Below, piece after piece: positions 2,035-59,317 of a stretch of 64,000 bases of DNA. The notes under the pieces were generated by a model. It ran no database searches, had not been told where the DNA came from, and saw only the letters and a program-made list of their open reading frames with translations. The translations under genes and the position numbers were made by a program. Source of the stretch: Candidatus Latescibacterota bacterium (GTDB lineage: Bacteria > Latescibacterota > CBDEFO01); NCBI GenBank assembly GCA_965248755.1, contig OZ252149.1, forward strand, positions 4,064,001-4,128,000, in the 5' to 3' direction. How positions within the stretch are numbered: the first letter of the stretch is position 1; each line of letters starts with the position of its first letter.

Positions 2035-3322
2035 TGTACTGCCCCCCAGAAAAGCGACATCAATTAAGCAACTTGGGGTAGCAGATAAAATTGTTTTCTC
2101 CACTCTTCCGGGGTCTTGTATCCCAGAGATGAATGAAGCCAGTTCTTGTTGTAATTATCGATCCACTGAGATATGATCTTCTCAGCTTGTTCAAAGGACT
2201 TGAAATTGTGAAGCCACACACACTCCTGCTTGAGGGTCCTGAAAAAACGTTCTATGACCCCGTTCCAATCGGCCTTTCCGCTCGGAATATATTCTTGACG
2301 AATGTCCCAATATTCGGTACTTGCCAAATAGGTCCGAGACAAAAAGATGGAGCCGTTGTCAGAGCGCAAAGTGAGACCCTGGGGGACAGCCTCCTTAGGA
2401 AGTGTATCGAGAGATCACGGCCCGATCCAGGGCATCTGTGGCCTCCAGTGCCCTCCCTTTTCGACTAAAACGATACCCGGGGAACCTCCCGACTCCCGTT
2501 GTCCACCACCGCAATAAGAGGACACCAACCATCTTCCCCACAATAGATCTTGGTCAAGTCAGCCGACCAGAGACTGTCAGGACGATCCATCACAGAACGC
2601 TTCTGGGCAACCTGTGGCCCCTTTCTCCCGGGGTCCCCGATTGATTCTATCGGGGATTCCACAGCTTACACTGCCACCCCTTAAGCTTCATTATCCTATG
2701 AACCTTCTTGATGTTGACATATGCCCCTTCCTTGAAACGAAGATGCGCCCAAACCCGCCTGTGACCAAATGCCTCTTCTTGGTCGAGTATCCCTCGAATA
2801 CGAAAAGCAAGCTGTTCATCTATCACAGACTCTTCGACAGAAGAACTGACACCTCTATACCTAAGCCTACACAGAGTCGAACGATGCAAACCCAAAGCCA
2901 AAGCTACCACCTTCCGGGAATAGCCTCGACCCAAAAACCGCTCACTCAAGGCAACCGCTTCGTTTTTTTTAGACGGGCTACCTCCTCGAGTATCTCCAAC
3001 TGGAGGGTTAAGTGCCCTACCTTACGCTCCAACCGGCTGACCTCCCGCTCCTTCGCATCCTTGCGACCACGCCGAGACTTCAGACTCTCCTGGCCTCCTT
3101 CCAAGAAACTATCACGCCAAGCATACGCCTGTGACTGGCTAATTCCATTCTTCCAACACACCTCTGATACATTCGCTCCTTTCAAAACAGCCAACACCAC
3201 CTCTACCTTACGGGTCGCCGTCCAGCGCTTACCATCTTTCACTTCGGGGCTTGACACCTTGACCTCCTTTCTCAAACCCCAATTTGCAAAATATTTGTCG
3301 CCCTGTCAAGGGGAGCGGTATG
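2035..3322 (-). mobile_element. IS3-family element, copy 2 (orfA intact 2946-3275; orfB frameshifted)
   Basis: TGTACTGCCCC...GGGGAGCGGTATG ends; AAAA duplication (2031-2034 / 3323-3326); 1288 bp versus 1266 in sisters, from two +1 indels and a net +20-bp palindrome insertion. Confidence 0.95.
2635..2655. repeat. Short palindromic element CCCCGATTGATTCTATCGGGG inserted in IS orfB
   Basis: Absent from the same position in copies 3, 5 and 6 (cccgggacgattcc). Confidence 0.9.
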
Positions 3323-3379
3323 AAAAGAATTCTTTCTGCCCAAGAAATATTGTACTGCTTCCCAGGAAAGCGACACCAA

Positions 3380-4243
3380 TTAAGCAACCTGGGGTAGTAG
3401 ATAAAATTGTTTTCTCCACTCTTTTGGGGTCTTATATCCCAGGGATGAATGAAGCCTGTTCTTGTTGTAATTATCGATCCACTGAGATATGATCTTCTCA
3501 GCCTGTTCAAAGGATTCAAACTTGTGAAGCCAAACACACTCTTGCTTGAGGGTCCTGAAAAAACGCTCTACAACACCGTTCCAATCGGGTTTACCACTTG
3601 GTATGTATTCCTGACGAATTCCCCAATATTCGGTACTGGCCAAATAGGCCCGAGCCAAAAAGATGGAACCATTGTCAGAGCGCAAAGTGAGACCCTGGGG
3701 GACAGCCTCCTTGGAAGTGTATCGAGAGATCACGGCCCGATCCAGGGCATCTGTGGCCTCCAGTGCCCTCCCTTTTCGACTAAAACGATACCCAGGAACC
3801 TCCCGGCTTCCGTTGTCCACCACCGCAATAAGAGGACACCAACCATCTTTTCCACAGTAAATCTTTGTCAAGTCACTCGACCACAAACTGTCGGGACTAT
3901 CCACCACAGAACGCTTCTGGGCAACCTGTGGCCCCTTTCTCCCGGGACGATTCCACAGCTTACACTGCCACCCCTTAAGCTTCATTATCCTATGAACCTT
4001 CTTAACGTTGACACATTCCCCTTCCTTGAAACGAAGATGCGCCCAAACCCGCCTGTGACCAAATGCCTCTTCTTGGTCCAGTATCCCTCGAATACGAAAA
4101 GCAAGCTCCTCATCTATCACAGGCTCTTTAACAGAAGAACTGACACCTCTATCCCTAAACCTATACAGAGTCGAACGATGCAAACCCAAAGCCAAAGCTA
4201 CCACCTTGCGGGAATAGCCTCGACCCAAAAACCGCCCACTCAA
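3380..4243 (-). CDS. IS3-family transposase OrfB (DDE integrase core)
   Basis: WSSDLT, VVDNGSRE, RSDNGS and NGVVERFFRTLKQE motifs. Confidence 0.93.
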   Translation of the reverse strand: MSGRFLGRGYSRKVVALALGLHRSTLYRFRDRGVSSSVKEPVIDEELAFRIRGILDQEEAFGHRRVWAHLRFKEGECVNVKKVHRIMKLKGWQCKLWNRPGRKGPQVAQKRSVVDSPDSLWSSDLTKIYCGKDGWCPLIAVVDNGSREVPGYRFSRKGRALEATDALDRAVISRYTSKEAVPQGLTLRSDNGSIFLARAYLASTEYWGIRQEYIPSGKPDWNGVVERFFRTLKQECVWLHKFESFEQAEKIISQWIDNYNKNRLHSSLGYKTPKEWRKQFYLLPQVA

Positions 4244-4569
4244 GGCAACCGCTTCGTTTTTTTTAGACGGGCTACCTCTTCGAGTATCTCCAACTGGAGC
4301 GTCAACTGCCCTACCTTGCGCTCCAACCGGCTAACCTCTCGCTCCTTCGGATCCTTGCGACCACGCCGAGACTTCAGACTCTCCTGGCCCCCTTCTAAGA
4401 AACTATCACGCCAAGCATACGCCTGCGACTGGCTAATTCCATTCTTACGACACACCTCAGATAGATCTGCTCCTCTCAAAAGAGCCAACACAATCTCTCC
4501 CTTACGGGTCGCCGTCCAGCGCTTACCATCTTTCACTTCGGGGCTCGACACCTTGACCTCCCTTCTCAA
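4240..4569 (-). CDS. IS3-family transposase OrfA (HTH plus coiled coil)
   Basis: HTH-like SEVCRKNGISQSQAYAWR; overlaps orfB in the -1 frame, with an A8 run just upstream. Confidence 0.9.
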   Translation of the reverse strand: MRREVKVSSPEVKDGKRWTATRKGEIVLALLRGADLSEVCRKNGISQSQAYAWRDSFLEGGQESLKSRRGRKDPKEREVSRLERKVGQLTLQLEILEEVARLKKTKRLP

Positions 4570-4616
4570 ACCCCAATTTGCGAAATATTTGTCGCTCTGT
4601 CAAGGGGAGCGGTATG

Positions 4617-5425
4617 TAGTAGACAAAGTGGCGTCGAGCTATACACTTTACTGGAACATAGTTTCTATACTTGATACTCTAACGACATGGTTTGTACTTT
4701 ACAAAATTCCCTTTTGGATTAGACTGATAGTTCTTATTTTGGTTATATCAATAATGATGGCGATGTCGGTGTTTCTCCATTACAAGCTCAAGAAGCAGGC
4801 CAATATCGAGTTGATGTACGTACGGTCTGCAGGTGTTTTTTTGCTAGTCTATGTCCTCTTTTTGCTTACTCATATAACGATCGTTGACATTTCCCTCTTC
4901 AACTCACTAAGAATTAGTAGGTATTTGACACCGATGTATGTCCCCCTCATGTTTTTGGTGTTCATAGGAATAGAAGACGCGTTAAACTTGTTGAATCGAC
5001 TCTTCAGAAAGAAGGGGTCAGGAAATTTCATAGTTATTGGGCTATGCACTCTTTGGCTGATGTATCCCCTTGCCCGTATTTGTAGGATGGTTCCGTTTTA
5101 TATTCAAGCCGGTACCGGCACATTTAATACAGCTACTTGGAGAAAGTCACCTCTCATGGAACGGATGCGAATTCATCCGTTAGAAGGTAAGATTTATAGT
5201 AACGCACCTCAAGCTATATATATTCTAACCGGAACTCCTGCGCAGTGGCTTCCAGATATTTCGACATTAAGGGAATCTATGTCATCAAGGAATAATAACT
5301 ATCTTGTCTGCTCTAATACATACGGCAATAAAGATTGCAACTATATATTGCAAGGACTTGCTCCCATGTTCCAAATTGAAGAAATAGCGACATTTTCCGA
5401 TGGAGGGATCTATCTTTTCAAATAA
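4617..5425 (+). pseudogene. 3' remnant of a polytopic membrane protein (GT-C/ArnT-like glycosyltransferase), 5' part removed at the IS edge
   Basis: Open frame starts at the IS boundary with no start codon; TM segments, RYLTPMYVP and IYSNAPQAIYILTG resemble the C-terminal half of 9411-11074. Confidence 0.65.
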
Positions 5426-5493
5426 GAGGAGCAGAGAATACCTCCTGATATACAGCATGTTTGCCGGTGGGTTAAGACAAAGAGGAGAACTTA

Positions 5494-6542: not shown

Positions 6543-7085
6543 CATACCGCTTCCTTTGACAGAGAGACACGTATTTTGCAAATTGGGAATTGAGAATGGA
6601 GGTCAAAGTGTCAAGCCCCGAAGTGAAAGATGCTAAGCGTTGGACGGTGACTCGTAAGGCAGAGGCTGTGTTGGCTCGTTTGAAAGGAGGGGATGTATCG
6701 GCAGTACGTCGGGAAAATGGAATTAGCCCGTCGCAGGTGTATACTTGGCGTGATAGTTTCTCAGGGGCAGGCCAGGAGAGTTTGAAGTCCCGGCGTGGTC
6801 GCAAGGATCTGAGGGAGCGGGAGATTAATCCCCGATAGAATCAGTTGGGTATTGGAACGGTGTGATAGAGCTCTTTTTCAGGACGCTCAAGCAAGAGTGT
6901 GTCTGGCTTCACAATCTTGAATCGTTTGAACAAGCTGAGAAGATCATATCTCAGTGGATTGATAATTACAACAAGATACGTCTCGATTTATCCCTGGGAC
7001 ATAAGACCACACAGCTGTGGAGAAAACAATTTTATCTGCTACCCCAAGTTGCTTAATCGGTATCGTTTTCCAGGGGAGCACTACA
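6543..7085 (+). mobile_element. IS3-family element, copy 4 (diverged, internally deleted, 543 bp)
   Basis: CATACCGC left end and GGGGAGCACTACA right end; keeps the orfA 5' part and orfB 3' part joined across a palindrome at 6830-6849. Confidence 0.9.
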
Positions 7086-7103
7086 ACGGTATGCTATTTT
7101 AGG

Positions 7104-7132
7104 TTGCACAATTCTGGAATATTGCATATATT
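7104..7132 (+). promoter_or_regulatory. Putative sigma70 promoter of the glycosylation cluster
   Basis: TTGCAC-N17-TATATT, 62 bp upstream of the ATG at 7195. Confidence 0.5.
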
Positions 7133-7194
7133 TTTACACTGTTTTTAACCAAGCAGGTCAAATAAATATTTGCGGGTTCTAAAGGATAGAAAAG

Positions 7195-8349: not shown

Positions 8350-8354
8350 ATAAA

Positions 8355-9401: not shown

Positions 9402-9410
9402 GAAATTGGA

Positions 9411-15861: not shown

Positions 15862-18616
15862 GTGAACATCAAAAGACACATAAACGATTATATCAGAGGG
15901 CATCACCTATGCTATGATGACCTTATAATTGTTTTGCTATTTCTCCCCTTAACACTGTTATTTGTTGTTGAATTAATAATGTCCTTAGATTGGAGAATGG
16001 CCCATGATACCCCTTTACTTCATTATGTCGCGTTCCTCGCAGACCATTATAATTATGCCTTATATAAAGACGTGTTTGATTTTAACATGCCAGGTGCGGT
16101 TTTGTTCCATTTATCCATAGGAAAGCTTCTTGGGTATGGGGATCTGGCATTCAGACTTACCGATATAGCTTGGTTGTGTGCACTATTGTTTGTAACCTGG
16201 GGTATTATGAGTCAATTTGGCAAACGGGTAGCTTGGGCCAGTGTTATCTTATTCGGTTTGTCATATTTTCAACATGGTCCAGCTATGAGTTTGCAACGGG
16301 ATTACGTTGGTATGCTTCCAATTGGTATGGCTATTTTTATAGTGATTTCTCGGCCTCAACTCAGTCTTTCTATTCGAGCTTTTCTCGTAGGTATCCTTTT
16401 CGGTATATCAGCTACTATCAAACCTCCTCTGGTTATCGGGTTACCTTTAGTTTTATTCTTCCAATGGAAGCAGACATACCGAACTAATACTGATGAGATA
16501 CCTATTACATCACCACTTTCAATTGCGTTGTCAATCAGCTTCTTTTCTTTTTTAGGCTTTGCAGTACCGATGTTTGGTTCCATTCTTTGGCTATGGCGGC
16601 AAGGTTCATTGCCATATTTATGGGAGATATATTCGTCATATCTACCATTGTATTTAAGCTTAACCGGTGAACACAAGACAATCTTTGGAATAGATCGGTT
16701 AAAATATCTAATAGAATCATATCTACATCTGGGTGGACACTCTACTTGGCTTATACCAGCGTGTTTGGGACTTTTTATCGCTTCCTTTGATGCAATGTAC
16801 TGCCCCCCAGAAAAGCGACATCAATTAAGCAACTTGGGGTAGCAGATAAAATTGTTTTCTCCACTCTTCCGGGGTCTTGTATCCCAGGGATGAATGAAGC
16901 CTGTTCTTGTTGTAATTATCGATCCACTGAGATATGATCTTCTCAGCTTGTTCAAAGGACTTGAAATTGTGAAGCCACACACACTCCTGCTTGAGGGTCC
17001 TGAAAAAACGTTCTATGACCCCGTTCCAATCGGCCTTTCCGCTCGGAATATATTCTTGACGAATGTCCCAATATTCGGTACTTGCCAAATAGGTCCGAGA
17101 CAAAAAGATGGAGCCGTTGTCAGAGCGCAAAGTGAGACCCTGGGGGACAGCCTCCTTGGAAGTGTATCGAGAGATCACGGCCCGATCCAGGGCATCTGTG
17201 GCCTCCAGTGCCCTCCCTTTTCGACTAAAACGATACCCAGGAACCTCCCGGCTTCCGTTGTCCACCACCGCAATAAGAGGACACCAACCATCTTTTCCAC
17301 AGTAAATCTTTGTCAAGTCACTCGACCACAAACTGTCGGGACTATCCACCACAGAACGCTTCTGGGCAACCTGTGGCCCCTTTCTCCCGGGACGATTCCA
17401 CAGCTTACACTGCCACCCCTTAAGCTTCATTATCCTATGAACCTTCTTAACGTTGACACATTCCCCTTCCTTGAAACGAAGATGCGCCCAAACCCGCCTG
17501 TGACCAAATGCCTCTTCTTGGTCCAGTATCCCTCGAATACGAAAAGCAAGCTCCTCATCTATCACAGGCTCTTTAACAGAAGAACTGACACCTCTATCCC
17601 TAAACCTATACAGAGTCGAACGATGCAAACCCAAAGCCAAAGCTACCACCTTGCGGGAATAGCCTCGACCCAAAAACCGCCCACTCAAGGCAACCGCTTC
17701 GTTTTTTTTAGACGGGCTACCTCTTCGAGTATCTCCAACTGGAGCGTCAACTGCCCTACCTTGCGCTCCAACCGGCTAACCTCTCGCTCCTTCGGATCCT
17801 TGCGACCACGCCGAGACTTCAGACTCTCCTGGCCCCCTTCTAAGAAACTATCACGCCAAGCATACGCCTGCGACTGGCTAATTCCATTCTTACGACACAC
17901 CTCAGATAGATCTGCTCCTCTCAAAAGAGCCAACACAATCTCTCCCTTACGGGTCGCCGTCCAGCGCTTACCATCTTTCACTTCGGGGCTCGACACCTTG
18001 ACCTCCCTTCTCAAACCCCAATTTGCGAAATATTTGTCGCTCTGTCAAGGGGAGCGGTATGATGATCCTTGTGCGAGTGCCAAGCCAGCATAGCTCATCA
18101 TATAGGCGACTTTTTCCAATCTTTGTACTGATACTAACTTTGGTCTTAGTGTTGCGTCCTTCATCGGACTTTTATCGACAGGTTAGAGGTCTTCCACCTG
18201 TCGCACCGAGACGCGGTCGTGTTGATAAGATTGCAGATTTCCAAAAATTACACGTGGAACCGGGTGATAAAGTTCAGCCTCTGGATTGGACGGGGGGGGT
18301 TGTACATGCAATGCTTCTATCAAGGGTGGAAATAGCCACGCCTTTTATATACGATTTTCATTTTTATCATCATATTTCGAATCCATACATTCAAACATTA
18401 CGCAAGCGATTTATGCAAAAACTCAAAGAAGCAGCGCCTCGATATGTTATTGAAATCGTCCATAGATACAAACCGTGGGTTTCTGGTTTAGATACGACCA
18501 GGAACTTTAAGAAATTAGGGCGTCTACTTAATGCTGATTACTTGGTGAGGATCAAGGGTAATGGATATGTGATCTATGAAAGGACGCGAAAAAAAGCAAA
18601 AGTCGTAAATCAATAG
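15862..18616 (+). pseudogene. GT-C-like membrane protein interrupted by IS copy 5 (fragments 15862-16795 and 18062-18616)
   Basis: HDTPLLHY, DFNMPG, QRD and TIKP in the 5' part; soluble C-terminal part after the IS; the halves do not rejoin in frame. Confidence 0.75.
16796..18061 (-). mobile_element. IS3-family element, copy 5 (complete, mosaic; orfB 16825-17688, orfA 17685-18014)
   Basis: 1266 bp with the same ends; flanks GCAA/ATGA do not match. Confidence 0.95.
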
Positions 18617-25400: not shown

Positions 25401-25442
25401 CCCCTGATCCCCGATAGACGTAATCGGGGATTCAATCGGGGG
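25401..25442. repeat. Nested pair of CCCCGA...TCGGGG palindromes within a GTAGAC-type repeat
   Basis: CCCCTGAT[CCCCGATAGACGTAATCGGGG]ATTCAATCGGGGG, flanked by GTAGGCAGTAG and TAGACGGGGCACC. Confidence 0.85.
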
Positions 25443-27254: not shown

Positions 27255-27630
27255 CTGATATATTCTCGATTTGGACGGGGTTTTGATCCACGATTGAATC
27301 TATCGGCGACTGCGGTAGTTCCTGCTCCACGTCGATGCGTATTCCGCCAGCCCATTTGGAAATGAGGTTATAGACTATGACGCCTGCAGCCGAAATAGTA
27401 GCCCACAAGATACCCATAAAGGGAGCAAGGAAGAAGGGCACTACCAGAGCCATCCCAGTGGAAATACCCTCGGGTGCAAACTCGTCAGGTATTATGGCGC
27501 TAAAAAAGCCGGAGATGAGTAAGACAAAGGCGATCCAGAAGAAACCGTACAGAAGCCCTATAAAGAGTCCCACAAAAAATGTGATCTTGACGACTGACCA
27601 GACGTCTATGCGGCTAATTTCACAATTCAT
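27244..27630 (-). CDS. Small two-TM membrane protein (DUF3566-like)
   Basis: RIDVWSVVKI...YNLISKWAGGIRI pattern. Confidence 0.7.
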   Translation of the reverse strand: MNCEISRIDVWSVVKITFFVGLFIGLLYGFFWIAFVLLISGFFSAIIPDEFAPEGISTGMALVVPFFLAPFMGILWATISAAGVIVYNLISKWAGGIRIDVEQELPQSPIDSIVDQNPVQIENISDEG

Positions 27631-27874: not shown

Positions 27875-27898
27875 CCCCCGATTGAATCTAGTCGGGGG
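27875..27898. repeat. CCCCGA...TCGGGG palindrome
   Basis: CCCCCGATTGAATCTAGTCGGGGG splitting ACAG|TAGACAGGG. Confidence 0.88.
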
Positions 27899-35563: not shown

Positions 35564-35679
35564 AGTAGACAGTAGTCAGTAGACAGCATACTGGTGCACC
35601 ATCTCCTCTCCCTTCTACTATCCCTAAAGTGGGGATGAGCAGGGTTACCCTGTCTACTGTCTACTGTTTGCTGTCTACT
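35564..35679. repeat. Intergenic inverted-repeat unit with AGTAGAC heptamer arms
   Basis: Same architecture as 34905-35013, on the other side of atpH. Confidence 0.9.
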
Positions 35680-35682
35680 GAT

Positions 35683-36564: not shown

Positions 36565-36672
36565 CTTTCCCTCCCTGATTTAAAAAGTTTGGTGGTGTAC
36601 ATTGGATTCCTACATATTTCATTACAAATGAGGTTCGAATTTCTCAAAGTTGGCTTTGAGTTACTATAATGT

Positions 36673-36693
36673 CCCCGATTGAATCTATCGGGG
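36673..36693. repeat. CCCCGA...TCGGGG palindrome
   Basis: CCCCGATTGAATCTATCGGGG between atpB and atpE. Confidence 0.9.
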
Positions 36694-36728
36694 CATGCCT
36701 CCTTTCTATCCCTTTGTAATGAATGCTC

Positions 36729-38246: not shown

Positions 38247-39704
38247 CTACATAATAGACAGGGCGGACTGTACGGCTAATTCCAAAAGCCACGAGGGCAT
38301 GATGCCGATTTCGATTACTCCGAGGGCACAAAGCGCAAGGGTCAATGACAAAAGGACTGGAGTAGAGGCTCCAACCGCTGTGGATGGAACTTCCTCAGGT
38401 TCACTCATATACATTACTACCACAACTCTCAGGTAGTAGTAAACTGAGATGACGCTATTTACAACAGCGACGATGACCAGTCCTGTAAATCCTGCCTTTA
38501 TTGCCGCTCTGAAGATATAGAACTTCCCTATAAATCCTGCTGTCGGAGGAAATCCCGCAAGCGACATCATAAAAAGGGTCATCAAAAGGGCGACCACGGG
38601 GCGTTTAAATCCGAGACCTGAATACGAGTCAAAGGTGAGGTTCTCTGCTCCTTCTCTTCCCATCATTATCAGGATTCCGAACGCCCCTATATTCATAAGC
38701 GTATAGACTAAAAGGTAGAAGATAAGACTTGAAACGCCCTCCTCTGCCGACGCCACGAGCGCTACCAAAGCATATCCTGCGTGGGCGATGCTCGAATAAG
38801 CCAACATCCTTTTTATATTGTTCTGCGATATGGCTATTACATTTCCCACGGTCATTGTCAATGCGGCGATGACCCACACTATCGCGATCCACTCACCTTG
38901 CATCGCCTCGAACGTAAGCACAAATACCCTCAAAAGGGCGGCGAATCCTGCGGCTTTAGGGCCTGCGGATATAAAAGCCGTGATCGCCGTGGGAGCGCCC
39001 TCATAGACATCCGGAACCCACATGTGAAACGGTACGAGGGCTATCTTAAACCCCAGACCGACGAGGATTAAAAAGCCTCCAACTAAAAGGAGCGGAGATT
39101 CTGCCGCCGTAGTGCTCGATATGTAATCGGTTATGCCCACAAGGTTTGTAGTCCCGCACCCGCCGTAGACGAGAGCCATTCCGTATAATAAGAATCCCGT
39201 GGCAAAGGCCCCCAAAAGAAAATATTTCAGTGCTGCCTCGTTGGAGGCAGGTTCGCGCCTCATGAACCCTGCTAGAATATACTGAGAAATGGACAAAAGT
39301 TCAAGCCCTAAAAAGATCATGATTAAATCCGTCCCCGCAGCTAACAACATCATCCCGACCGTTGCCAAAAGCAGAAGGATGTAATATTCAGCTTTGTCTA
39401 TCTTTTCCCTCTTGACGTAGGTGAGGGAAATCCCAATAGTAAGTGCCGTCCCGATGAGGAATATGATATTGAAGAAGATGGTGTAGTTGTCCAGAGCGAC
39501 CATATTGCTGAAGGATATGTCCTGACTCCCCCACAGTCTGATGGACTGAAAGATAGCCAACATAATCCCTACAAAGCTGAGCAGGGCCGCCTTGCTTCCC
39601 CTCGGAGAGATCATATCTGCGATCATCGCCACAAGAGCCGTGCCCGTAACTATTAGTGCGGGCGAGATGATCGTCCAGTTCATGTCCGGTATGGAGACGT
39701 CCAT
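38247..39704 (-). CDS. nuoN: NADH-quinone oxidoreductase subunit N
   Basis: EAALKYF, FKIALVPFHMWVPDVYEGAP and KRMLAYSSI; the ORF-track extension upstream is repeat DNA. Confidence 0.96.
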   Translation of the reverse strand: MDVSIPDMNWTIISPALIVTGTALVAMIADMISPRGSKAALLSFVGIMLAIFQSIRLWGSQDISFSNMVALDNYTIFFNIIFLIGTALTIGISLTYVKREKIDKAEYYILLLLATVGMMLLAAGTDLIMIFLGLELLSISQYILAGFMRREPASNEAALKYFLLGAFATGFLLYGMALVYGGCGTTNLVGITDYISSTTAAESPLLLVGGFLILVGLGFKIALVPFHMWVPDVYEGAPTAITAFISAGPKAAGFAALLRVFVLTFEAMQGEWIAIVWVIAALTMTVGNVIAISQNNIKRMLAYSSIAHAGYALVALVASAEEGVSSLIFYLLVYTLMNIGAFGILIMMGREGAENLTFDSYSGLGFKRPVVALLMTLFMMSLAGFPPTAGFIGKFYIFRAAIKAGFTGLVIVAVVNSVISVYYYLRVVVVMYMSEPEEVPSTAVGASTPVLLSLTLALCALGVIEIGIMPSWLLELAVQSALSIM

Positions 39705-39709
39705 AAGCA

Positions 39710-39765
39710 AGTAGACAGTAGACAGTAGACAGTAGACAGGGCACATCCTTCCCCCTATCTACTAC
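39710..39765. repeat. (AGTAGAC)x4 tandem heptamer and repeat arm
   Basis: AGTAGACAGTAGACAGTAGACAGTAGACAGGGCAC. Confidence 0.9.
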
Positions 39766-39782: not shown

Positions 39783-41228
39783 TTAGAAAAAGACGAATGT
39801 AACTACTACAAACAGGGGCATCAAAATCATAACGGAGTAGAGCATAAATCCGAAGAAGCTCGGCATCTTTATTCCGTTTTCCTCTGCGATGGATCTAACC
39901 ATAAAGTTCGGAGCGTTGCCAATATAAGTTGTTGCTCCCATAAAGACTGCACCCGCAGATATAGCTTTGAGGTATATCTCCTGCCGTTCAATGAGCAATT
40001 GCACAGCCTCAAGTTCAGGTATTCCAGGAAAGAAGTTTCCCAAAGCCGTATTCAAGAACGTCAGATAAGTGGGCGCATTATCCAGGAAGCTTGAAAGTAT
40101 CCCCGTAATCCAGAAGTAGTGCCACGGTTCTGTAACCGCCTGTATAAGAGACCCCAGTGCTCCCTCTGTCCCAGCCTTTAATATGGCAAGAGCGGGGATT
40201 ATGCACATAAATATGCCAGCAAATAGATACGCCACCTCTTTTATGGGGAACCACGTAAATCCATTGGCGACTCTGAGTTCTTTCGACGTGAACCTAAGAG
40301 ATAAAAGCCCCATAACTATCAGCGTTATGTCCCTTGCGATATTCTGGATTCCCACGTGGACTCCCGCCAGAGTCACAGCCCCGGGTCTCCACAGGCCACT
40401 CATCAAGACTCCACCTATCACTCCGAAAAGGAATATAAAGTTGTAAAGCCCTTCGATTCTCAGAGGTTTCTTCTCGACTTTTTCTTCTACTTCTATATCC
40501 GTAGGATTAGGTCTTTCGCGTGCATATAGAACACTGTCAATCATATAAAACAATATCAGAAGTAGGATACTGACGAACGCCATGTGCGGGAATAAGTTGA
40601 AAGTCCAGAAAAAGTCGACCCCGTGGAGAAATCCCAAGAATAGGGGTGGATCGCCCAGTGGAGTCAATGATCCTCCTATGTTGCTGACCAGGAATATGAA
40701 GAATACCACAATGTGCAACTTGCTCCTTCTGTGTTCGTTAGCCCTTATAATAGGTCTAATAAGGAGCATTGACGCCCCTGTAGTGCCTACCCAGGACGCT
40801 ATTATTGTGCCTATGAGCAGAATCGTCGTGTTGACGATGGGAGTCCCCTTTAGAGTGCCGCTCACAAGTATCCCGCTGGAGACCGTAAAGAGCGCCCATA
40901 AGAGTATAATAAAGGGTATGTAATCGATTATGTATATATGCAGTATTTCCTGCAGAGCTTCGCCTCCGTAAGCAGCCGTAAAGGGAATGGCAAATATCAA
41001 AGCCCACGCGGCGGAGATCTTTCCGAAATGATGATGCCAGAATATCGGAGCCGCAAGGGGAAAGATAGCGATAGAAAGCAGTAAGCCGACAAAGGGAATG
41101 AGAGACCACAGAGGCAAGACCTTTCCGAGTACAGCTCCAGTGTGATCTTGCCCCTGGCCACTGCTCGCCCCACACGCCACGGGGAGGATCAGAGCAAGTA
41201 CAGCAAGGAACAGAATAAGCCAGCCCAT
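39783..41228 (-). CDS. Putative Na+/H+ antiporter (IT superfamily, CitMHS-like)
   Basis: GTTGASM, SNIGGSLTPLGDPPLFLG, LDNAPTY and YIGNAPNFM; start set at MGWLIL because upstream is repeat DNA. Confidence 0.85.
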   Translation of the reverse strand: MGWLILFLAVLALILPVACGASSGQGQDHTGAVLGKVLPLWSLIPFVGLLLSIAIFPLAAPIFWHHHFGKISAAWALIFAIPFTAAYGGEALQEILHIYIIDYIPFIILLWALFTVSSGILVSGTLKGTPIVNTTILLIGTIIASWVGTTGASMLLIRPIIRANEHRRSKLHIVVFFIFLVSNIGGSLTPLGDPPLFLGFLHGVDFFWTFNLFPHMAFVSILLLILFYMIDSVLYARERPNPTDIEVEEKVEKKPLRIEGLYNFIFLFGVIGGVLMSGLWRPGAVTLAGVHVGIQNIARDITLIVMGLLSLRFTSKELRVANGFTWFPIKEVAYLFAGIFMCIIPALAILKAGTEGALGSLIQAVTEPWHYFWITGILSSFLDNAPTYLTFLNTALGNFFPGIPELEAVQLLIERQEIYLKAISAGAVFMGATTYIGNAPNFMVRSIAEENGIKMPSFFGFMLYSVMILMPLFVVVTFVFF

Positions 41229-41262
41229 TGGACGCCACCGCCCGTTCGCATGAGCCCTCTTA

Positions 41263-41390
41263 AGTAGACGGGGACATCTTATCTCTGTGCTTGAGATAGC
41301 TTCAGGGGATTTCACCTCCCTTGCAATTACAATGCCAGTCCTTTGGTCATTGTGAGCAGAAGGAAGCAATCTCCCTGTATGCTGTCTACT
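41263..41390. repeat. Composite repeat: heptamer arms enclosing a GAGATTGC/GCAATCTC REP-like doublet
   Basis: AGTAGACGGGGACA...GAGATAGCTTC...GCAATTAC...GTCATTGTGAG...GCAATCTC...GCTGTCTACT. Confidence 0.75.
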
Positions 41391-41407
41391 ATTTTGGATC
41401 TCTGTAA

Positions 41408-42967
41408 TCATTTCGATTCGATACTTGAAACCGTGTCCTGGATCGGATCTCTATAGTCCGCATAGGCACTCTTTTCTATTCTGACCTGGTGTAGAACGTG
41501 CTCCACAGAGTGCTCCATTTTGCTCAAGAAGGGTCTGGGATAGACCCCTATGAATATGATCAAGAGGACTATGGGCGCAAGCACAAATATCTCTCTTATG
41601 TTGACGTCTTTCAATCTCCTGTTCTCCTCTTTTGTGATCCCTCCGAACATCACTCTCTGGAACATCCAGAGCATGTAGACAGCAGCGAAAATGAGCCCCG
41701 ACGTGGCGATTACGGCGTATACAATTGCTCCGTCGTTCGCTGAGACGAACGTTCCCAGGAGGATCAGGAACTCCCCGACAAAGCCGTTGAGTCCGGGAAG
41801 CCCTATCGAAGACAGCGTAAATATCAAAAAGAACGAGGCAAATATCGGCATCTGCCTTGAGAGTCCGCCGAACTCCGAGATCAGCCTGGTGTGTCTTCTA
41901 TCGTAGATCATGCCGACGATCAGAAATAGCGCACCTGTGCTCAAGCCGTGATTTATCATCTGAAGTATCCCGCCTGACATCCCCTCAGGCGTGAAGGCAA
42001 ATATCCCTAACATCACAAACCCCAGATGGCTGACGCTCGAATACGCAACTAACTTTTTGAGGTCCTTTTGCATCATCGCCACGAGTGCCCCATAGATTAT
42101 GCCGATGAGAGAAAGGACACATATCAACGGCGTAAAGTGAAAAGACGCTTCGGGAAAGAGGGGCAGGCAGAATCTTATGAATCCGTAAGTCCCCATCTTA
42201 AGCAGCACCCCGGCTAATATCACGCTTCCTGCAGTCGGAGCCTCCACATGGGCGTCAGGAAGCCATGTATGCAGAGGAAATAGGGGAACTTTGATGGCAA
42301 AAGCCAGTGCAAAGGCCAGAAAGAGCCAGTACTGGGTGTTCTTTGAAAGGGGCGTGGCGTAGAGACTCAAAAGGTCGAATGTGTATTGCCCTGTAGCCGT
42401 GTGATTTGCAAAATAGAGCGCAAGGATAGCGACCAACATTAGGGCGCTTCCGGCCATCGTGAAGAGCACGAACTTCATAGCCGCGTAGATTCTCCTTTCG
42501 TGTCCCCAGATCCCTATGATAAAGTACATAGGGATAAGCATCGCCTCCCAGAAGACGAAGAATAAGAACATGTCTAAGGCGCAAAAGACGCCGAGCATCC
42601 CCGCCTCTAAAAGCAGAAGTGAGGCGAAGAAGCCCCTTGTGCTCCTCTGTATAGCCGTCCACGATGCCAGAATGCATATAGGTGTGAGAAATGTAGTTAT
42701 AAGGACCAGAAAGAGACTTATTCCATCTATGCCGAGGTAATAGTTGATGCCGAGTTCTCCTATCCATTCGGACTTCTGGACGAACTGCATGAGGTGTGTG
42801 TCGGGATCGAATTTGAAGAACAGATACAGCGATCCGATAAACTCTACTGTTGAAAAGATGAGGGCGAGCAACCTTATGGCCCCTGCGTTTTCAGCCTTCA
42901 AAAGGGCTAATATAATAGCTCCTGCAAGGGGAAAGAATATGACGAATGTCAGTATCGGAAATTCCAT
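41408..42967 (-). CDS. nuoM: NADH-quinone oxidoreductase subunit M
   Basis: FWEAMLIPMY and HTWLPDAHVEAPTAGS. Confidence 0.97.
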   Translation of the reverse strand: MEFPILTFVIFFPLAGAIILALLKAENAGAIRLLALIFSTVEFIGSLYLFFKFDPDTHLMQFVQKSEWIGELGINYYLGIDGISLFLVLITTFLTPICILASWTAIQRSTRGFFASLLLLEAGMLGVFCALDMFLFFVFWEAMLIPMYFIIGIWGHERRIYAAMKFVLFTMAGSALMLVAILALYFANHTATGQYTFDLLSLYATPLSKNTQYWLFLAFALAFAIKVPLFPLHTWLPDAHVEAPTAGSVILAGVLLKMGTYGFIRFCLPLFPEASFHFTPLICVLSLIGIIYGALVAMMQKDLKKLVAYSSVSHLGFVMLGIFAFTPEGMSGGILQMINHGLSTGALFLIVGMIYDRRHTRLISEFGGLSRQMPIFASFFLIFTLSSIGLPGLNGFVGEFLILLGTFVSANDGAIVYAVIATSGLIFAAVYMLWMFQRVMFGGITKEENRRLKDVNIREIFVLAPIVLLIIFIGVYPRPFLSKMEHSVEHVLHQVRIEKSAYADYRDPIQDTVSSIESK

Positions 42968-43474: not shown

Positions 43475-43497
43475 CCCCCGATTGAATCTATCGGGGG
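43475..43497. repeat. CCCCGA...TCGGGG palindrome
   Basis: CCCCCGATTGAATCTATCGGGGG downstream of nuoL. Confidence 0.9.
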
Positions 43498-49497: not shown

Positions 49498-49676
49498 TTG
49501 AGATTGCCCTCGATTGAACCCCCGACAGATTCAATCGGGGGTCGGGGATTGCTTCGGGGGTCTGCTCATCGTAATGACAGAAGCCGAGAACAAAACAATG
49601 TCATTGCGATTCTCCTGAACTGCTATTCAGAGCAGACCAATCTCAGTCAGACTGCCTCTCGGCGTTTGCTGTCTAT
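49498..49676. repeat. Composite repeat: REP-like doublet containing nested palindromes (49507-49547)
   Basis: GAGATTG[CCCTCGATTGAA[CCCCCGACAGATTCAATCGGGGG]TCGGGG]ATTGCTTCG...CGTAATGACA...TGTCATTGCGA...CAATCTC...GCTGTCTA. Confidence 0.85.
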
Positions 49677-49681
49677 CTTTC

Positions 49682-53729: not shown

Positions 53730-53748
53730 GTACCTTCCCTTCTAAAGC

Positions 53749-53925: not shown

Positions 53926-53928
53926 TCT

Positions 53929-54957: not shown

Positions 54958-56306
54958 TCTATTCTCGACTCGTTTGCAACTCCGTCGTAGAGTTCCACCC
55001 TGCTGATGTCCTCTTGGCAGGAGAGATATTTCTCCTTGGTAATGGGCGGTTTTGCTTTATCCAGTATCTCCTTTGCGTTCTCAGCGTTTCCCCAGAGGAG
55101 ATCAACAGCCGCCATGGCCAGGGACTTTGCAGGGGCGAGGTATCCCAGATCGTGATCTGCTATGTGCCACTCTGCGCTGTGAGAGGGGCCTTGTGCTCCG
55201 GCGATGAAGGGATGCAGGGCGGGCATGATATGGCTTATATCTCCCATATCGGTTGAGCCTGTGCGATGGCCGCCCTCAGTCACCTCGTCCTCTCCAAATA
55301 GAGAAGCTGCGTTGTCCACGAAGATATCTTTTATACTCTGATCGTTAACAAAGGGCATGAATCCCCCGAGGGTCCGTATCTCAACTTTAGCTCCCAAAGC
55401 CATCGCGCCTGCTCTTAAGGATCTGTCCACCTTTCTGTCTGCATCCGAGATCGCCTCGTTAGTTTTACCTCTGATGTACGTCTCGATCCTCACATCAGAA
55501 GGTATGATGCTGACAACGTCACCACCCCGCGTTACTATGGGATGCACTCGTACAGTGTCCTCGTCTTTAAACGTCTCCCTCTGTGCGTTGATGGCAGAGA
55601 GAGCTACATTGGCGGCGTAGAGGGCATTAATTCCCTGGTGTGGCGCTGCTCCCGCGTGGGCAGCTCGACCTGTGAACCTGACCAATTTGACTATAGCTCC
55701 GTTGAAGGAATCGACTACCGTGGCGAATTTGTCCTCGGGATTGCTGTTGGTGTGGATCATCATAGCCATATCTATGTCGTCGAATTCTCCCAAGCTCACC
55801 AACTCCGGCTTTCCGCACAAAAATGCAAGTTTTCCTTCACCTATCAGCCTGGCCCTGTACCCCACTTCCACGCATTCCTCGGCGGGAACGGCAAAGAAGA
55901 CCACATTTCCAGACAGGGAATCGGCGGCTTTGGCATCTGTCATTGCCATCAAAGCGCCCATGAGTCCCGCTATTTGAGCGTTGTGGCCGCAGGCGTGAGC
56001 GGCTCCCGTCTCTTTGTTCGATATAGGATGATCGGGGACTATGAGGGAATCTAATTCGCCTATTAAAGCCACAGTAGGTCCCGGTTTGCTGCCCTTTAAA
56101 ACCCCCTTGACGCCCGTAATAGCAAGACCGTCTCTGTGTGGAATTCCCAGACTTTCAAAGGTCCCGGATACGAGCTTCGCCGTCCGAAATTCCTTGAATC
56201 CAAGTTCGGGATTTCGCATTATATCTTCGCCGATGGAGATAATATCGTCTCTGTGTTTGTCAACGGATTCACATATTTTCTTCTTCAGTTCGTCTTTGTT
56301 TTGCAT
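54954..56306 (-). CDS. M20-family amidohydrolase
   Basis: PELGFKE, ELD, HACGHN, PAEE and GSTDMGD. Confidence 0.92.
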   Translation of the reverse strand: MQNKDELKKKICESVDKHRDDIISIGEDIMRNPELGFKEFRTAKLVSGTFESLGIPHRDGLAITGVKGVLKGSKPGPTVALIGELDSLIVPDHPISNKETGAAHACGHNAQIAGLMGALMAMTDAKAADSLSGNVVFFAVPAEECVEVGYRARLIGEGKLAFLCGKPELVSLGEFDDIDMAMMIHTNSNPEDKFATVVDSFNGAIVKLVRFTGRAAHAGAAPHQGINALYAANVALSAINAQRETFKDEDTVRVHPIVTRGGDVVSIIPSDVRIETYIRGKTNEAISDADRKVDRSLRAGAMALGAKVEIRTLGGFMPFVNDQSIKDIFVDNAASLFGEDEVTEGGHRTGSTDMGDISHIMPALHPFIAGAQGPSHSAEWHIADHDLGYLAPAKSLAMAAVDLLWGNAENAKEILDKAKPPITKEKYLSCQEDISRVELYDGVANESRIE

Positions 56307-56392
56307 TCGTGTTCCCTTCTATTTTAATGTGTTTTCATACAAACTGTTACATTCAGCTACGTGCATACGACCGCTGGAACATCGCCGTGTAC

Positions 56393-58249
56393 TTATACGT
56401 CGCCGGTCAGTCGGACCCGTACCCCCTGAGCCTCCAATGCCGGGATCTGTTCATTGATAGCAGCATCGCTGAGAGGGTTGTTCCACAGAGACAGCTTTCT
56501 CAGTTCAGTCAGTCCAATGAATGGGGATAGATCGCTGATTTTGTTCTCGTCCAGACCCAACTCTCTCAGTTTTCTCAGTCCAGCCAAAGGAGACAGATCA
56601 CTGATTTGATTGTGTCCCAGCCACAGCACCGTAAGTTGCGTCAGTCCAGATAGCGGAGACAGATCGCTAATCTGGTTGTTATGCAGAGTCAGCCTTGTAA
56701 GTTGTGTTAGTTCAGACAACGGAGACAGATCGCTGATCTTATTCCCATCCATCATCAGCTTTTTGAGTTGTCTCAGTTCAGATAGAGAAGATAGATCACT
56801 AATCTGGTTGTTAAATAGTCGCAGATCTGTCAGTTGGGTCAACTGCCCGATACCTGTCAAGTCAGTACTCTGACCCCTTCCCACCTCCAACTTGGTTAGT
56901 CTTGTCACATCTTTCGGAGTCAGTACCCCCTCAGGTTTGCGCAAGGCCTTCCGTACTGCCGTCTCCAGGTTGGGGTCGGCAAAGGTTATAGCTATAGAAT
57001 ATGTCGCTGTTACGCCTCGAGCCTCCAATGCTGGAATGTGTTTGTTGATAGCGACATCACCGAGCGGGTTGTCCCTCAGACTCAGCCTTGTCAATTGAGT
57101 CATTCCGAGCAACGGAGATAGATTGCTGATCTGGTTGCCCCAGAGGCTCAGTTTTGTCATTTGTGTCATCCCTGCTATCGGGGATAGATCACTAATCTTA
57201 TTGGTACTGAGATCCAGGTGAGTCAGTTGCGTGAGTTCAGACAGCGGTGATATATCGCTAATCTGGTTTCTTCCCAGCCACAAGCCTGTCAATCGTATCA
57301 GTTCAGACAGTGGAGACATATCGGTGATCCGGTTATTTCCCAGAGTCAGCAATGTGAGTTGTGTCAGTCCTGACAGTGGAGACATATCGCTAATCCAGTT
57401 GTCTCCCAGAGTCAGAAATCTGAGTTGTGTCAGTCCTGATAGGGGAGATACATCCCTGATATGGTTGTGCAACACCTGTAGCTCTCTCAGTTCAGTTAGT
57501 CCAGCCAGTGGAGATAGATCACTAATCCCGTTGTTGAACATATACAGTTTTGTCAACTGTGTCAGTCCAGCAAGCGGAGATAGATTGCGGATCTCGTTGC
57601 CCCGGAGGCTCAGTTTTGTTAGTTGAGTCAGCCCTGCCAGCGGGGATAGATCACTAATCTGATTGCTACTCAGATCCAGGTGTGTAAGTTGTGTTAGTCC
57701 AGACAGCCGAGATATATCGCTGATTTGATTGCTATTGAGCAACAATTTTCTCAGTTGTCTCAGTTCAGATAGCGGCGCAAGGTTGCTGATCTCGTTGCCC
57801 TGTAGATCCAGATCTGTCAGTTGAGTCAGTTTGGATATCACGGAAAGATCACTAAGCTGGTTGCCCGCCAGAACCAGTCTTGACAGATGTGTTAGTTCGG
57901 ATACCAGAGAAAGGTCGTTAATCTGGTTGAACCCAAGATCCAGCTCTATTAGTTGTGTTAGACCAGATAGCGCAGATATATCGCTAATTTGGTTGCCCTT
58001 CAGATTCAGTTTCGACAGTCGAGTCAATTGCTCGATCCCAGTCAAGGCCGTAATCTTCTTTCCAGCCAAATCTAACCCTGTTAGGCCTACCAAGTCTTCT
58101 TGGGTGAGTTCTCCCTCGGCTTTATCCACAACCTCACGTACTGCAGCCTCCAGCCTGGGATCAGCAAAATCCTTTACCGGTTTCGGAGCGTTGTCGCCAC
58201 ATGCGATTAAGACCAGCAGAATTGGCCCGACTACAATCGTTCTATCCAT
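56393..58249 (-). CDS. Internalin-like leucine-rich-repeat lipoprotein
   Basis: Lipobox LIA-C; 22-aa LxLxxNQISDLSPLS repeats in two modules, each capped by FADPxLExAVR. Confidence 0.92.
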   Translation of the reverse strand: MDRTIVVGPILLVLIACGDNAPKPVKDFADPRLEAAVREVVDKAEGELTQEDLVGLTGLDLAGKKITALTGIEQLTRLSKLNLKGNQISDISALSGLTQLIELDLGFNQINDLSLVSELTHLSRLVLAGNQLSDLSVISKLTQLTDLDLQGNEISNLAPLSELRQLRKLLLNSNQISDISRLSGLTQLTHLDLSSNQISDLSPLAGLTQLTKLSLRGNEIRNLSPLAGLTQLTKLYMFNNGISDLSPLAGLTELRELQVLHNHIRDVSPLSGLTQLRFLTLGDNWISDMSPLSGLTQLTLLTLGNNRITDMSPLSELIRLTGLWLGRNQISDISPLSELTQLTHLDLSTNKISDLSPIAGMTQMTKLSLWGNQISNLSPLLGMTQLTRLSLRDNPLGDVAINKHIPALEARGVTATYSIAITFADPNLETAVRKALRKPEGVLTPKDVTRLTKLEVGRGQSTDLTGIGQLTQLTDLRLFNNQISDLSSLSELRQLKKLMMDGNKISDLSPLSELTQLTRLTLHNNQISDLSPLSGLTQLTVLWLGHNQISDLSPLAGLRKLRELGLDENKISDLSPFIGLTELRKLSLWNNPLSDAAINEQIPALEAQGVRVRLTGDV

Positions 58250-58745
58250 GCGATTCGTGCCTTTGGTGCTCGCCTGTTTCGCCTTTGATGAGTTCCACAG
58301 CGTGAGGGATCACGTCCTGGAGCCATTCTAAACACTCTCTTACGCCCTTGGGACTCCCCGGAAGGTTGATTATGAGCGTCTCTCCTCTGACCCCTGCGGT
58401 CATCCTGGAGAGCATAGCCCATGGAGTGATCTTCAGGCTCTTTGCCCTCAGAGTCTCGCCTATACCCGGGACCGCCTTTTCGATCACGTATTCTGTCGCC
58501 TCAGGGGTTACGTCTCTCTGTGCGACGCCCGTTCCGCCCGTGGTCAGAATAACGTCCATGCCGTCGTCGTCTGCCATTGTGGCTAAAGCCTCTGTTATCT
58601 CGTCAATTTCGTCCGGGACTATGCGATAGACCTCCACCTTTCCGCCGAACTCGGGCGCTATTTCTCTTATAGCTGCTCCGCCTTCATCCTCTCTTTCCCC
58701 CGCAGCGCTCTTGTCACTTACAGTCAGGACACCGACCTTTATCAT
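58242..58745 (-). CDS. mog: Molybdopterin adenylyltransferase (MogA/MoaB)
   Basis: TTGGTG...RDVTPEAT and INLPGSP. Confidence 0.92.
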   Translation of the reverse strand: MIKVGVLTVSDKSAAGEREDEGGAAIREIAPEFGGKVEVYRIVPDEIDEITEALATMADDDGMDVILTTGGTGVAQRDVTPEATEYVIEKAVPGIGETLRAKSLKITPWAMLSRMTAGVRGETLIINLPGSPKGVRECLEWLQDVIPHAVELIKGETGEHQRHESHG

Positions 58746-58750
58746 CGCTT

Positions 58751-59224
58751 CTACACCTCCCTTACGAACGATCCGCTCTTTCCGCCCGATTTTTTTATCA
58801 GTTTTATGTCGGAGATGACCATCCTCTTATCCACAGCCTTACACATATCGTATATGGTCAAAAGAGCGACAGAAACGGCTGTAAGTGCCTCCATCTCAAC
58901 TCCTGTCCTTCCGGGGACGGATACCTGGGACTCGACTTTTATCCTATCTTCTTCCACTTTGAATCTCACATCCACGCCCGTTATCTCCAGAGGATGACAG
59001 AGCGGGATTAGGTCCCACGTCCTCTTTGCCGCCATGATCCCCGCTATCCGGGCCGTCTCTATGACGTTTCCTTTAGGGGCTTTTCCGCCCACTATCATCT
59101 CGATTATCTTTCGGGACATCAGAATCTCGCCTTGGGCGATGGCTTCTCTTTGGGTCACATCTTTATGGGTTACGTCCACCATTCGTGCGGCGCCGCTTTC
59201 ATCTATATGAGTTAGCTTATTCAC
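58751..59224 (-). CDS. moaC: Cyclic pyranopterin monophosphate synthase
   Basis: MVDV, LIPLCHP, TGVEMEAL and YDMCKAVD. Confidence 0.96.
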   Translation of the reverse strand: MNKLTHIDESGAARMVDVTHKDVTQREAIAQGEILMSRKIIEMIVGGKAPKGNVIETARIAGIMAAKRTWDLIPLCHPLEITGVDVRFKVEEDRIKVESQVSVPGRTGVEMEALTAVSVALLTIYDMCKAVDKRMVISDIKLIKKSGGKSGSFVREV

Positions 59225-59246
59225 AGGCTATCTGCCTCCCTGCACA

Positions 59247-59317
59247 AGTAGACAGTAGCCCCCGATTGAAGCTATCGGGGGTAGATAGGGGCACCGCCTC
59301 CCATCCCTTTCTACTAC
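59247..59317. repeat. Heptamer arm interrupted by a CCCCGA...TCGGGG palindrome (59259-59281)
   Basis: AGTAGACAGTAG[CCCCCGATTGAAGCTATCGGGGG]TAGATAGGGGCACC. Confidence 0.88.

Follow-up and report, generated by a model that had tools for sequence, protein, structure and literature searches.

A 23-nt palindrome dispersed in a Latescibacterota genome, a probable mobile micro-element of the small dispersed repeat type

Copies of the palindrome in the analysed region

The DNA analysed here, hereafter the window, is a stretch of 64,000 nucleotides from the genome of a Candidatus Latescibacterota bacterium (contig OZ252149.1, positions 4,064,001 to 4,128,000), which is complete and consists of a single contig of 4,540,735 bp with a G+C content of 48.9%. 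Among housekeeping genes and copies of an IS3-family insertion sequence (IS) the window carries scattered copies of a very small palindrome, a unit of 23 nt (the 23-mer), which is the subject of this study. An initial annotation of the window had listed this palindrome as an insertable micro-element, and a copy was found at every coordinate given there. A search with CCCCGATTGAATCTATCGGGG allowing up to three mismatches yielded 11 strand matches at eight places (2635, 25409, 27288, 27876, 36673, 43476, 49520 and 59260) against none in each of 100 dinucleotide shuffles. The pattern CCCGA-N6-12-TCGGG matched seven times, the shuffle mean being 0.39. The copy at 27288 had been missed by the initial annotation.

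The first copy (2634..2656), which has T..A ends, is located inside orfB of an IS3-family element, where its in-frame TAG truncates OrfB. The copy listed at 6830 is present (6829..6851) in a decayed state with three mismatches in the 19-nt core. The two places that had been described as nested are both genuine nestings of an inner 23-mer inside an outer copy. In the first (25401..25441) the inner 23-mer (25408-25430) lies at the position of the outer copy's loop tetramer, and the pair is bordered by GTAG/heptamer-like flanks; in the second (49507..49547), found between nuoF and nuoE, the inner 23-mer (49519-49541) replaces the outer loop tetramer.

Outside the IS the copies occupy short spacers in the atp and nuo operons or lie in the vicinity of tRNAs and of moaC. 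A consensus copy (36672..36694) occupies the spacer between the genes for ATP synthase subunit c and subunit a, and another with C..G ends (43475..43497) lies between nuoM and nuoL. Downstream of moaC, a copy with C..G ends (59259..59281) is bordered by GTAG/heptamer-like flanks. The copy at 27287..27309 has two mismatches. The neighbouring copy (27875..27898), which adjoins the tRNA cluster and a heptamer-like flank, contains one extra G and is therefore 24 nt long; this G is absent from the contigs of other sequencing runs. The copies at 27287, 36672, 43475, 49507 and 59259 are common to the genome of a sister organism of the same genus, in which the nested pair at 25401 was also detected in the same state.

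Contigs of public runs showed no indel at the window copies, and they break at these copies, which makes them uninformative on population polymorphism. The sole matches of an Rfam search of the window were three tRNAs, with none for the 23-mer.

Structure and genome-wide distribution

Applying the 19-nt core with at most three mismatches as the definition of a copy, we detected the 23-mer at 540 places in the genome (124 exact, 194 with one mismatch, 142 with two and 80 with three). Their alignment forms a sharp block of 23-25 nt outside of which the information content is zero and the flanks are random. The unit is a hairpin palindrome of the form Y-CCCCGATTGANTCTATC-GGGG-R with the consensus Y-CCCC-GAT-(T/A)GA-N-TC(T/A)-ATC-GGGG-R. 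The palindrome is indeed very small, as initially annotated; its true size is 23 nt instead of about 21 bp, given that the outermost pair covaries. Among the 516 copies left after removal of duplicated contexts this pair is T..A in 230 and C..G in 158, and Watson-Crick pairing was present in 390 versus 230 expected. The next pair outward (left R, right Y) is unpaired (148 versus 174 expected).

Stem pair 6-18 is G-C in 325 copies and A-T in 25, with 7 + 7 = 14 single changes, and the hairpin is backed by the compensatory changes in this and the end pair. As single-stranded DNA the unit is predicted to fold into an 8-bp stem with a 7-nt loop (-7 to -8 kcal/mol), and its ends are 8-bp inverted repeats (Y-CCCCGAT / ATCGGGG-R). 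Both strands differ merely at two loop positions and the centre, which makes the orientation nearly arbitrary; 300 copies were assigned to the plus and 240 to the minus strand. No replichore orientation bias was observed (179:158 and 121:82).

The density is even across the genome (4-26 copies per 100 kb). No dense cluster of copies around a gene was detected in it, the small clusters falling in repeat-rich genes. Doublet spacing is absent, since 23 of 539 neighbour distances are below 100 nt and the sole recurrent spacing, 88-89 nt in seven cases, arises from two sites in a repeat described below (repeat X). Copies avoid long reading frames: 29% are located inside stop-to-stop frames of at least 150 codons versus 79% of random positions (16% versus 61% for at least 300 codons), and 71% lie outside long open reading frames (ORFs).

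The flanks of copies show an approximately 10-fold enrichment of the words GTAGAC and CTACTG. Tandem heptamer arrays (CTGTCTA / AGTAGAC) often lie beside the 23-mer or serve as its target, and GTAGACAG occurs 677 times in the genome. Two arrays of this repeat type, which often flanks 23-mers, are present in the window (CTGTCTA x4.4 at 35650..35680 and AGTAGAC x4.3 at 39710..39739). The arrays recall the heptamer repeats of heterocystous cyanobacteria. HIP1 is rare in the genome (49 copies).

Filled and empty sites within the genome

The IS carrying the first window copy (2035..3322, minus strand; Pfam HTH_28/HTH_Tnp_1, HTH_21, rve_3) has three sister copies in the window with the empty site, as had been noted before. 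These are located at 3351..4616 (about 91% identical, with an intact orfB of 287 aa), 16794..18062 and 59797..61062. The empty site reads ccggg-AC-gattcc and the filled site ccggg-GTCCCC...CGGG-gattcc. The net gain of 20 nt and the broken frame agree with the initial annotation, and on the minus strand the frame stops at the TAG at 2647-2649.

Throughout the genome this orfB site is filled in 15 IS copies, the window copy included, and empty in 55 copies and one variant. The insertion is consequently not private to the window copy, as had been assumed, and marks a 15-copy subfamily with different flanks. Over 1288 bp the filled copies share an identity of at least 99.8%, and their alignments end at the IS ends. 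The near-identity in combination with the different flanks indicates that an IS multiplied further after it had acquired the insert, presumably aided by its intact, about 91% identical relatives. In the filled subfamily the TAG of the 23-mer ends OrfB prematurely behind the HTH_21 domain, yet 15 near-identical copies exist; the subfamily gives the impression of a non-autonomous IS that is mobilised in trans, and it also serves as a vehicle for the 23-mer.

Including the IS, paralogous empty sites were found for 37 elements. Repeat X, which contains ..ggagtcattgcgaggagcaaagcgacgaagcaatctcaaggtttt.. and is present in about 15-20 dispersed copies (e.g. at 558,900-559,100 and 1,865,000-1,865,120 of the genome), offers two recurrent sites 88-89 nt apart, aagcg-AC-gaagcaat and gcaatc-TC-gattctg. 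Either site is occupied in several copies of the repeat, and both loop orientations occur. Repeat X itself may be a miniature inverted-repeat transposable element (MITE).

The 23-mer also inserts into itself. We identified 29 self-nested copies in the genome and 21 in 2.4 Mb of the sister genome, all at the loop tetramer. The 29 outer copies have the structure CCGATTGA-N-[23-mer]-TCGGGG, in which the inner 23-mer takes the place of the loop tetramer TCTA (TAGA when read on the opposite strand). The counterpart tetramer across the loop was not seen as a target among the nested half-sites listed, a side for which no count was taken. The inner copy has the same orientation as the outer one in 16 nestings and the opposite orientation in 13.

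Comparison with the sister genome

The sister genome, the sole close relative compared, was examined over 2.4 of its 4.6 Mb and carries the 23-mer at a similar density. The two genomes are about 95-96% identical, with values of 92-98% in long syntenic blocks, mostly 94-97%. Starting from the 540 elements of the genome under study, 138 were assessable; 102 of them are shared, 27 are absent or shorter in the sister genome and nine are larger there. The others fall outside the 2.4 Mb or in unalignable parts (299), lack anchors (61) or lie in repeats (42). In the reverse direction 150 of 281 elements were assessable, of which 102 are shared, 35 are absent or shorter in the genome under study and 13 are larger in it. 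Sites that are larger in the other genome mostly contain an extra nested copy there.

Whole-unit differences of more than 12 nt amount to 49, with 21 specific to the genome under study and 28 to its sister. Lineage-specific copies have fewer mismatches to the consensus than shared ones (0.84 versus 1.47; Mann-Whitney p=1.5e-4), as expected of young insertions and not of deletions in the other lineage. The 21 copies specific to the genome under study have a mean of 0.67 mismatches, and 11 of them are perfect. The net size differences peak at 19 (15 cases), 20 (8), 18 (6) and 27 nt (10), and a separate 12-nt class (6 cases) goes back to direct repeats within nested copies, between which sequence was deleted.

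Junctions and targets

When the 23-mer was taken as unit, junctions could be parsed for 30 of the 49 lineage-specific events, the other 19 being too diverged; three of the 30 turned out to be misparsed. In the initial annotation the copy at 27875 was described as splitting its site, and the insertion in the IS as having no clear target duplication. The 23-mer typically replaces about four target bases instead of simply splitting them: 4 nt are replaced in 11 junctions, 3 nt in seven and 5 nt in three. A duplication is indeed usually missing and was recognised in six parsed junctions (4-base in four, 3-base in two), although one of the 4-base cases is also readable as a replacement.

The replaced tetramers include ACGA (twice), TCGA, CCGA, TGGA, ACGC, GTAG and GCAG, and in nestings TCTA, GCTA and TACA. 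The swap of ACGA for a 23-mer recurred at unrelated sites, namely the IS, the first site of repeat X (site A), c4:151897 and c8:77243. NCGA and TAGA are common targets, and the rough target consensus is G-(A/T)(C/A)GA-TT. The 23-mer was furthermore found in heptamer arrays and in the loop of GTAG-tagged repetitive extragenic palindromic (REP) sequences (gagtgg-ACC-tcgcccctac).

A 27-nt form consists of the 23-mer together with a duplicated TCAA or GTAG, or with a CAGG, CAAG or CAGC tail on one side. It corresponds to nine codons and is the variant that occurs within genes. Two in-frame copies that are lineage-specific and absent from the sister genome affect ORFs in which Pfam domains were recognised. 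One (net 21 nt) belongs to the gene of a surface protein of 1143 aa that combines Ig-like, cohesin and dockerin domains with a type IX secretion system (T9SS) tail, the other (net 27 nt) to the gene of a T9SS protein of 813 aa. When read in the open phase, both strands of the unit translate into S/P-P-I-(E/D)-S-I-G-D.

Phyletic distribution

Among 41 relatives, the motif was carried by the genome under study and its sister only. A scan of the phylum with a degenerate pattern detected it in three of 168 genomes, with 255 strand hits in the genome under study, 295 in the sister genome and a single hit in one further genome. The exact 21-mer was, among the matches listed, found in metagenome-assembled genomes (MAGs) titled Deltaproteobacteria (several of them groundwater records) and Thermodesulfobacteriota, and also on one 3.5-kb contig titled Nanoarchaeia. 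Five genomes labelled as other phyla gave 129, 29, 15, 40 and 2 strand hits with at most two mismatches, and in four of the five a sister subfamily (GAATG...) is dominant.

Four element-bearing MAGs labelled as other phyla (G041 to G044) were included in further searches. A 246-kb sample of G041, which has 42% G+C, contains 20 copies of the same 23-nt architecture; the copies are resident and do not stem from stray contigs. The near absence from the rest of the phylum and the identity in MAGs labelled as other phyla suggest that this genus probably acquired the family horizontally. A phage vector found no support in a viral contig collection, in which the motif had no match. The 19-mers had no match in the text of the literature collection searched.

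Interpretation as a mobile micro-element

The lineage-specific differences are gains of whole units with defined edges; most parsed junctions have lost 3-5 target bases, and the targets are biased. Gain at precise sites occurred in both sister lineages, the targets including the IS, other repeats, loops of GTAG-tagged REPs, heptamer arrays, genes and the loops of the 23-mer itself. The initial idea of a mobile, non-coding micro-element which postdates the IS and is moved in trans is in line with the filled and empty sites within the genome and between the sisters, the nestings and the younger-looking lineage-specific copies. We consider it likely that the 23-mers are selfish non-coding micro-elements of the small dispersed repeat (SDR) type, which are inserted as a whole and in either orientation by machinery acting in trans.

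In the proposed mechanism a trans-acting protein would recognise the 8-bp inverted ends, with the orientation being irrelevant as the 16:13 split of the nestings suggests. The unit would then be joined into a target whose two strands are opened about four bases apart. In the usual outcome four target bases would be lost, giving a net gain of 19 or 20 nt, while in a minority the bases would be filled in and duplicated (net 26 or 27 nt). We infer the stagger and the end recognition from the junctions.

Several points weigh against this interpretation. No enzyme was identified, and the movement in trans is deduced indirectly. Polarity was assigned from paralogues, copy age and the four target bases that are present solely in empty sites, as the comparison includes no outgroup genome. 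With 19 of 49 junctions unparsed and outcomes varying between net 18, 19, 20, 21, 24, 26 and 27 nt, the 4-base stagger has to be regarded as a model and not as a demonstration. Some of the 27-nt forms carry a CAGG or CAAG tail that is not a target duplication, and some targets resemble half an element (xCGATT), which also fits a homology-driven process. Finally, the sister genome encodes a candidate REP-associated tyrosine transposase (RAYT) with a 23-mer 72 nt downstream of its gene.

Tentatively, the integration reaction may even be neither of the RAYT/HUH nor of the classical DDE type. It would recognise only the pair of 8-bp inverted ends and swap the unit for about four target bases without duplication, its determinant being transferable between phyla or nearly universal. 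If this were true, elements of the SDR type would represent a widespread, overlooked minimal class of transposons with an enzyme of their own.

Search for a mobilising enzyme

According to the initial annotation no candidate enzyme lies in the window, and this agrees with its gene content of housekeeping genes and IS3 copies. Two kinds of enzyme acting from elsewhere had been named as examples. For the first, an HUH/RAYT-type enzyme, no Y1 transposase was found in the genome; for the second, a reverse transcriptase or nuclease, a reverse transcriptase is present in the genome under study and was not found in its sister.

The best surviving alternative is that the 23-mer is a REP-type element which moves as a single-stranded hairpin by means of a RAYT or an IS200-like HUH tyrosine transposase, and that the genome under study has recently lost the gene or borrows the activity from co-resident cells. 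We regard this scenario as unlikely. It would account for a palindrome that forms a hairpin, has the size of a REP and shows compensatory changes in its stem, for the usual absence of a target duplication and for the insertion into loops of other hairpins. Genes of the Y1_Tnp family were moreover detected in all four element-bearing genomes of other phyla tested (10, 4, 1 and 3 genes), and the sister genome contains one RAYT-like ORF, the above-mentioned neighbour of a 23-mer, which scores 60.7 bits with the REP_Tyr_transpos model (NCBIfam NF047646) and hence remains below the cut-off of 80.

The complete genome under study, however, has no match to Y1_Tnp (PF01797) or REP_Tyr_transpos, and a tblastn search of it with five RAYT-like proteins yielded no RAYT gene. 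The weak matches obtained were rejected as candidates, the best one (E 0.004) being a REP-like hairpin and another Ffh/SRP54. Despite being free of RAYT genes this genome gained the 21 lineage-specific copies that are closest to the consensus. The 23-mer lacks the GTAG or CGTC head of REPs, GTAG being found directly before the copy start at only 41 places in the genome, and it shows neither the spacing of REP doublets (REPINs) nor a replichore orientation bias.

None of the three RAYT genes examined has 23-mers on both sides, and what flanks them are GTAG REPs of their own or terminal inverted repeats (TIRs): the RAYT-like ORF of the sister genome is bordered by a GTAG REP belonging to a different family, and the RAYT-like genes examined in G041 by their own GTAG REP or a 17-bp TIR. 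The ORF of the sister genome is furthermore only about 30% identical to the RAYT-like genes of G041 and G042. The loss of four target bases is also not known as a feature of HUH insertion. The mobilising enzyme thus appears, from the gene content, not to be a Y1 HUH transposase encoded in the genome under study.

Two observations on REPs were made in the course of this search. The RAYT-like ORF of the sister genome (C8:1476094-1476645; locus L227 10094-10645) holds an in-frame GTAG-REP-like hairpin. The genome under study possesses GTAG-tagged REP families (GTAGGGGC 230 times) despite its lack of a RAYT gene, and these REPs serve as targets of the 23-mer.

Other protein families gave no consistent candidate either. 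In the element-bearing genomes tested, IS110 was restricted to the sister genome, TnpB to G042 and G044, and RVT_1 to the genome under study; none of Y1_Tnp, IS110, TnpB and RVT_1 is common to all of them. A search for Y2_Tnp was uninformative, as the control also remained without a match. Comparing the ORFs of the 246-kb sample of G041 with those of the genome under study revealed a best match of 69% identity and no prominent candidate, although this sample represents about 10% of G041 and has little power. An autonomous partner with the same 10-nt arm ends was not found in the genome under study, most of the 85 half-sites being outer halves of nested copies. The IS3 ends were rejected as a source of the element, because they are unrelated to the 23-mer.

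Alternatives without a dedicated enzyme

A second alternative, which seems somewhat less probable still than a RAYT, dispenses with a dedicated enzyme. The copies would arise by template switching or short-patch gene conversion into sites of microhomology, helped by the hairpin. Several targets do resemble an arm of the element (ACGATT or TCGATT compared with CCGATT), a few target bases are replaced and not duplicated, and the junction outcomes are variable. In addition, the nestings recur at one site with 11 + 6 nt of flanking homology, and nested copies suffer the secondary 12-nt deletions between direct repeats. A process driven by homology is nevertheless difficult to reconcile with the sharp 23-nt edges at targets that offer little or no homology (GCAG, GTAG, ACGC), and with the even spread of about 540 copies. 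At least three unrelated lineages have seen an expansion of the family, yet among the 166 other genomes of the phylum a single copy was found in just one, which is hard to square with a universal replication error.

It is very improbable that the 23-mer is a functional host motif, such as a terminator, an mRNA-stabilising hairpin or a protein-binding site, that was multiplied by selection: the predominance outside long ORFs, the REP-like position of window copies in short atp and nuo operon spacers and the 102 sites conserved between the sister genomes would be compatible with it, whereas copies disrupt an IS transposase gene, sit in-frame in surface-protein genes, nest in each other, differ between genomes of 95-96% identity, were gained by whole-unit insertion and match no Rfam family in the window. 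Some copies may have a secondary function.

An adapter or assembly artefact was rejected in view of the 102 orthologous sites in an independent assembly and the MAGs from other records, and spread by point mutation in the manner of DNA uptake sequences was rejected because filled sites differ from empty ones by indels of the whole unit.

Comparison with known repeats

As a mobile micro-element the 23-mer is filed here with the SDR kind as a member in a non-cyanobacterial phylum, a likeness drawn from the description of the SDRs and not from their sequence. SDR1 to SDR8 of Nostoc punctiforme and relatives, reportedly described by Elhai, Kato, Cousins, Lindblad and Costa in 2008, are said to be mobile hairpins of 21-27 nt that are found nested and in heptamer arrays and whose enzyme was not known. 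Both would share the size class of 21-27 nt, hundreds of dispersed sites, a hairpin with compensatory changes, self-nesting, the embedding in heptamer arrays or small transposon-like repeats, and the occurrence of filled and empty sites. They differ in their hosts, which in the present case are a Latescibacterota genus and MAGs labelled as non-cyanobacterial phyla instead of Nostocaceae, and in the rarity of HIP1 in the genome analysed here. Since the cyanobacterial description of 2008 it has reportedly been an open question by what means DNA units in this size range (about 20-27 nt) are moved.

To the SDR kind the present analysis adds an explicit junction rule and a complete genome free of RAYT genes. 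A paper of 2018 reports no SDR-like repeat outside Nostocaceae among HIP1-rich cyanobacteria. The 49 lineage-specific differences provide a concrete rule, by which a 23-mer is exchanged for about four bases, often NCGA or TAGA, and less often a duplication of 3-4 bases results. The usual suspect is removed by a complete genome lacking RAYT/IS200 genes. A gene search by phyletic pattern is feasible, since MAGs that are labelled as other phyla contain the same unit and 166 other members of this phylum lack it almost completely.

REPs and REPINs with their RAYTs are, according to Bertels and Rainey 2011 (PMC3116915) and Di Nocera 2013 (PMC3733652), palindromes in hundreds of copies that are mostly extragenic and occasionally translated. 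The 23-mer resembles them as a short imperfect palindrome with hundreds of mostly extragenic copies that differ between close strains and can sit inside other palindromes. It differs from them in having Y-CCCC at both ends instead of a GTAG or CGTC tag, no doublets and no RAYT in the genome under study. Of the features that characterise REPs with a RAYT the predominantly extragenic location was found, while three others, the tetranucleotide tag, a repeat-flanked RAYT gene in the genome under study and REPIN doublets, were not.

MITEs mobilised by DDE transposases are usually several times larger than 23 nt. The 23-mer is similar to them in being non-coding, with terminal inverted repeats, putative movement in trans and a minority of 3-4-base duplications. 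Most of its insertions, in contrast, delete 3-5 target bases, and no IS with matching ends was found in the genome under study; both a target duplication of fixed length and an autonomous partner with the same TIRs were accordingly missing.

Longer types of Rickettsia palindromic elements (RPEs) are much larger than 23 nt, and their host is an obligate intracellular bacterium. The 23-mer has in common with the RPEs that palindromic repeats are tolerated in-frame within protein-coding genes, although most members of its family are intergenic and only a minority lie in coding sequence. The RPEs are mentioned in Di Nocera 2013 (PMC3733652).

For annotators the 23-mers are of practical relevance, as they break assemblies, add 7-9 residues to proteins and can truncate genes, as in the case of the IS described above.

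Further observations

Additional palindromes related to the 23-mer were noticed in the genome under study. One type has another hairpin in its loop (..gcgcctac..gtaggcgt..; e.g. at 1897080, 1900620 and 1904315), and shorter relatives of 17-20 nt are of the CCCCGATTAAATCGGGG type. Together with a CCCCAAT..ATTGGGG variant they indicate that several sister micro-families coexist.

In the window, 66-nt tandem repeats at 56575-57468 represent the leucine-rich repeats (LRRs) of the gene of an ordinary 618-aa LRR protein (56393-58249). Furthermore, a gene for a CitMHS_2-type transporter (39783-41411; Pfam E 2e-187) was found within the nuo operon, on the same strand and between nuoN (38247-39746) and nuoM (41408-42967).

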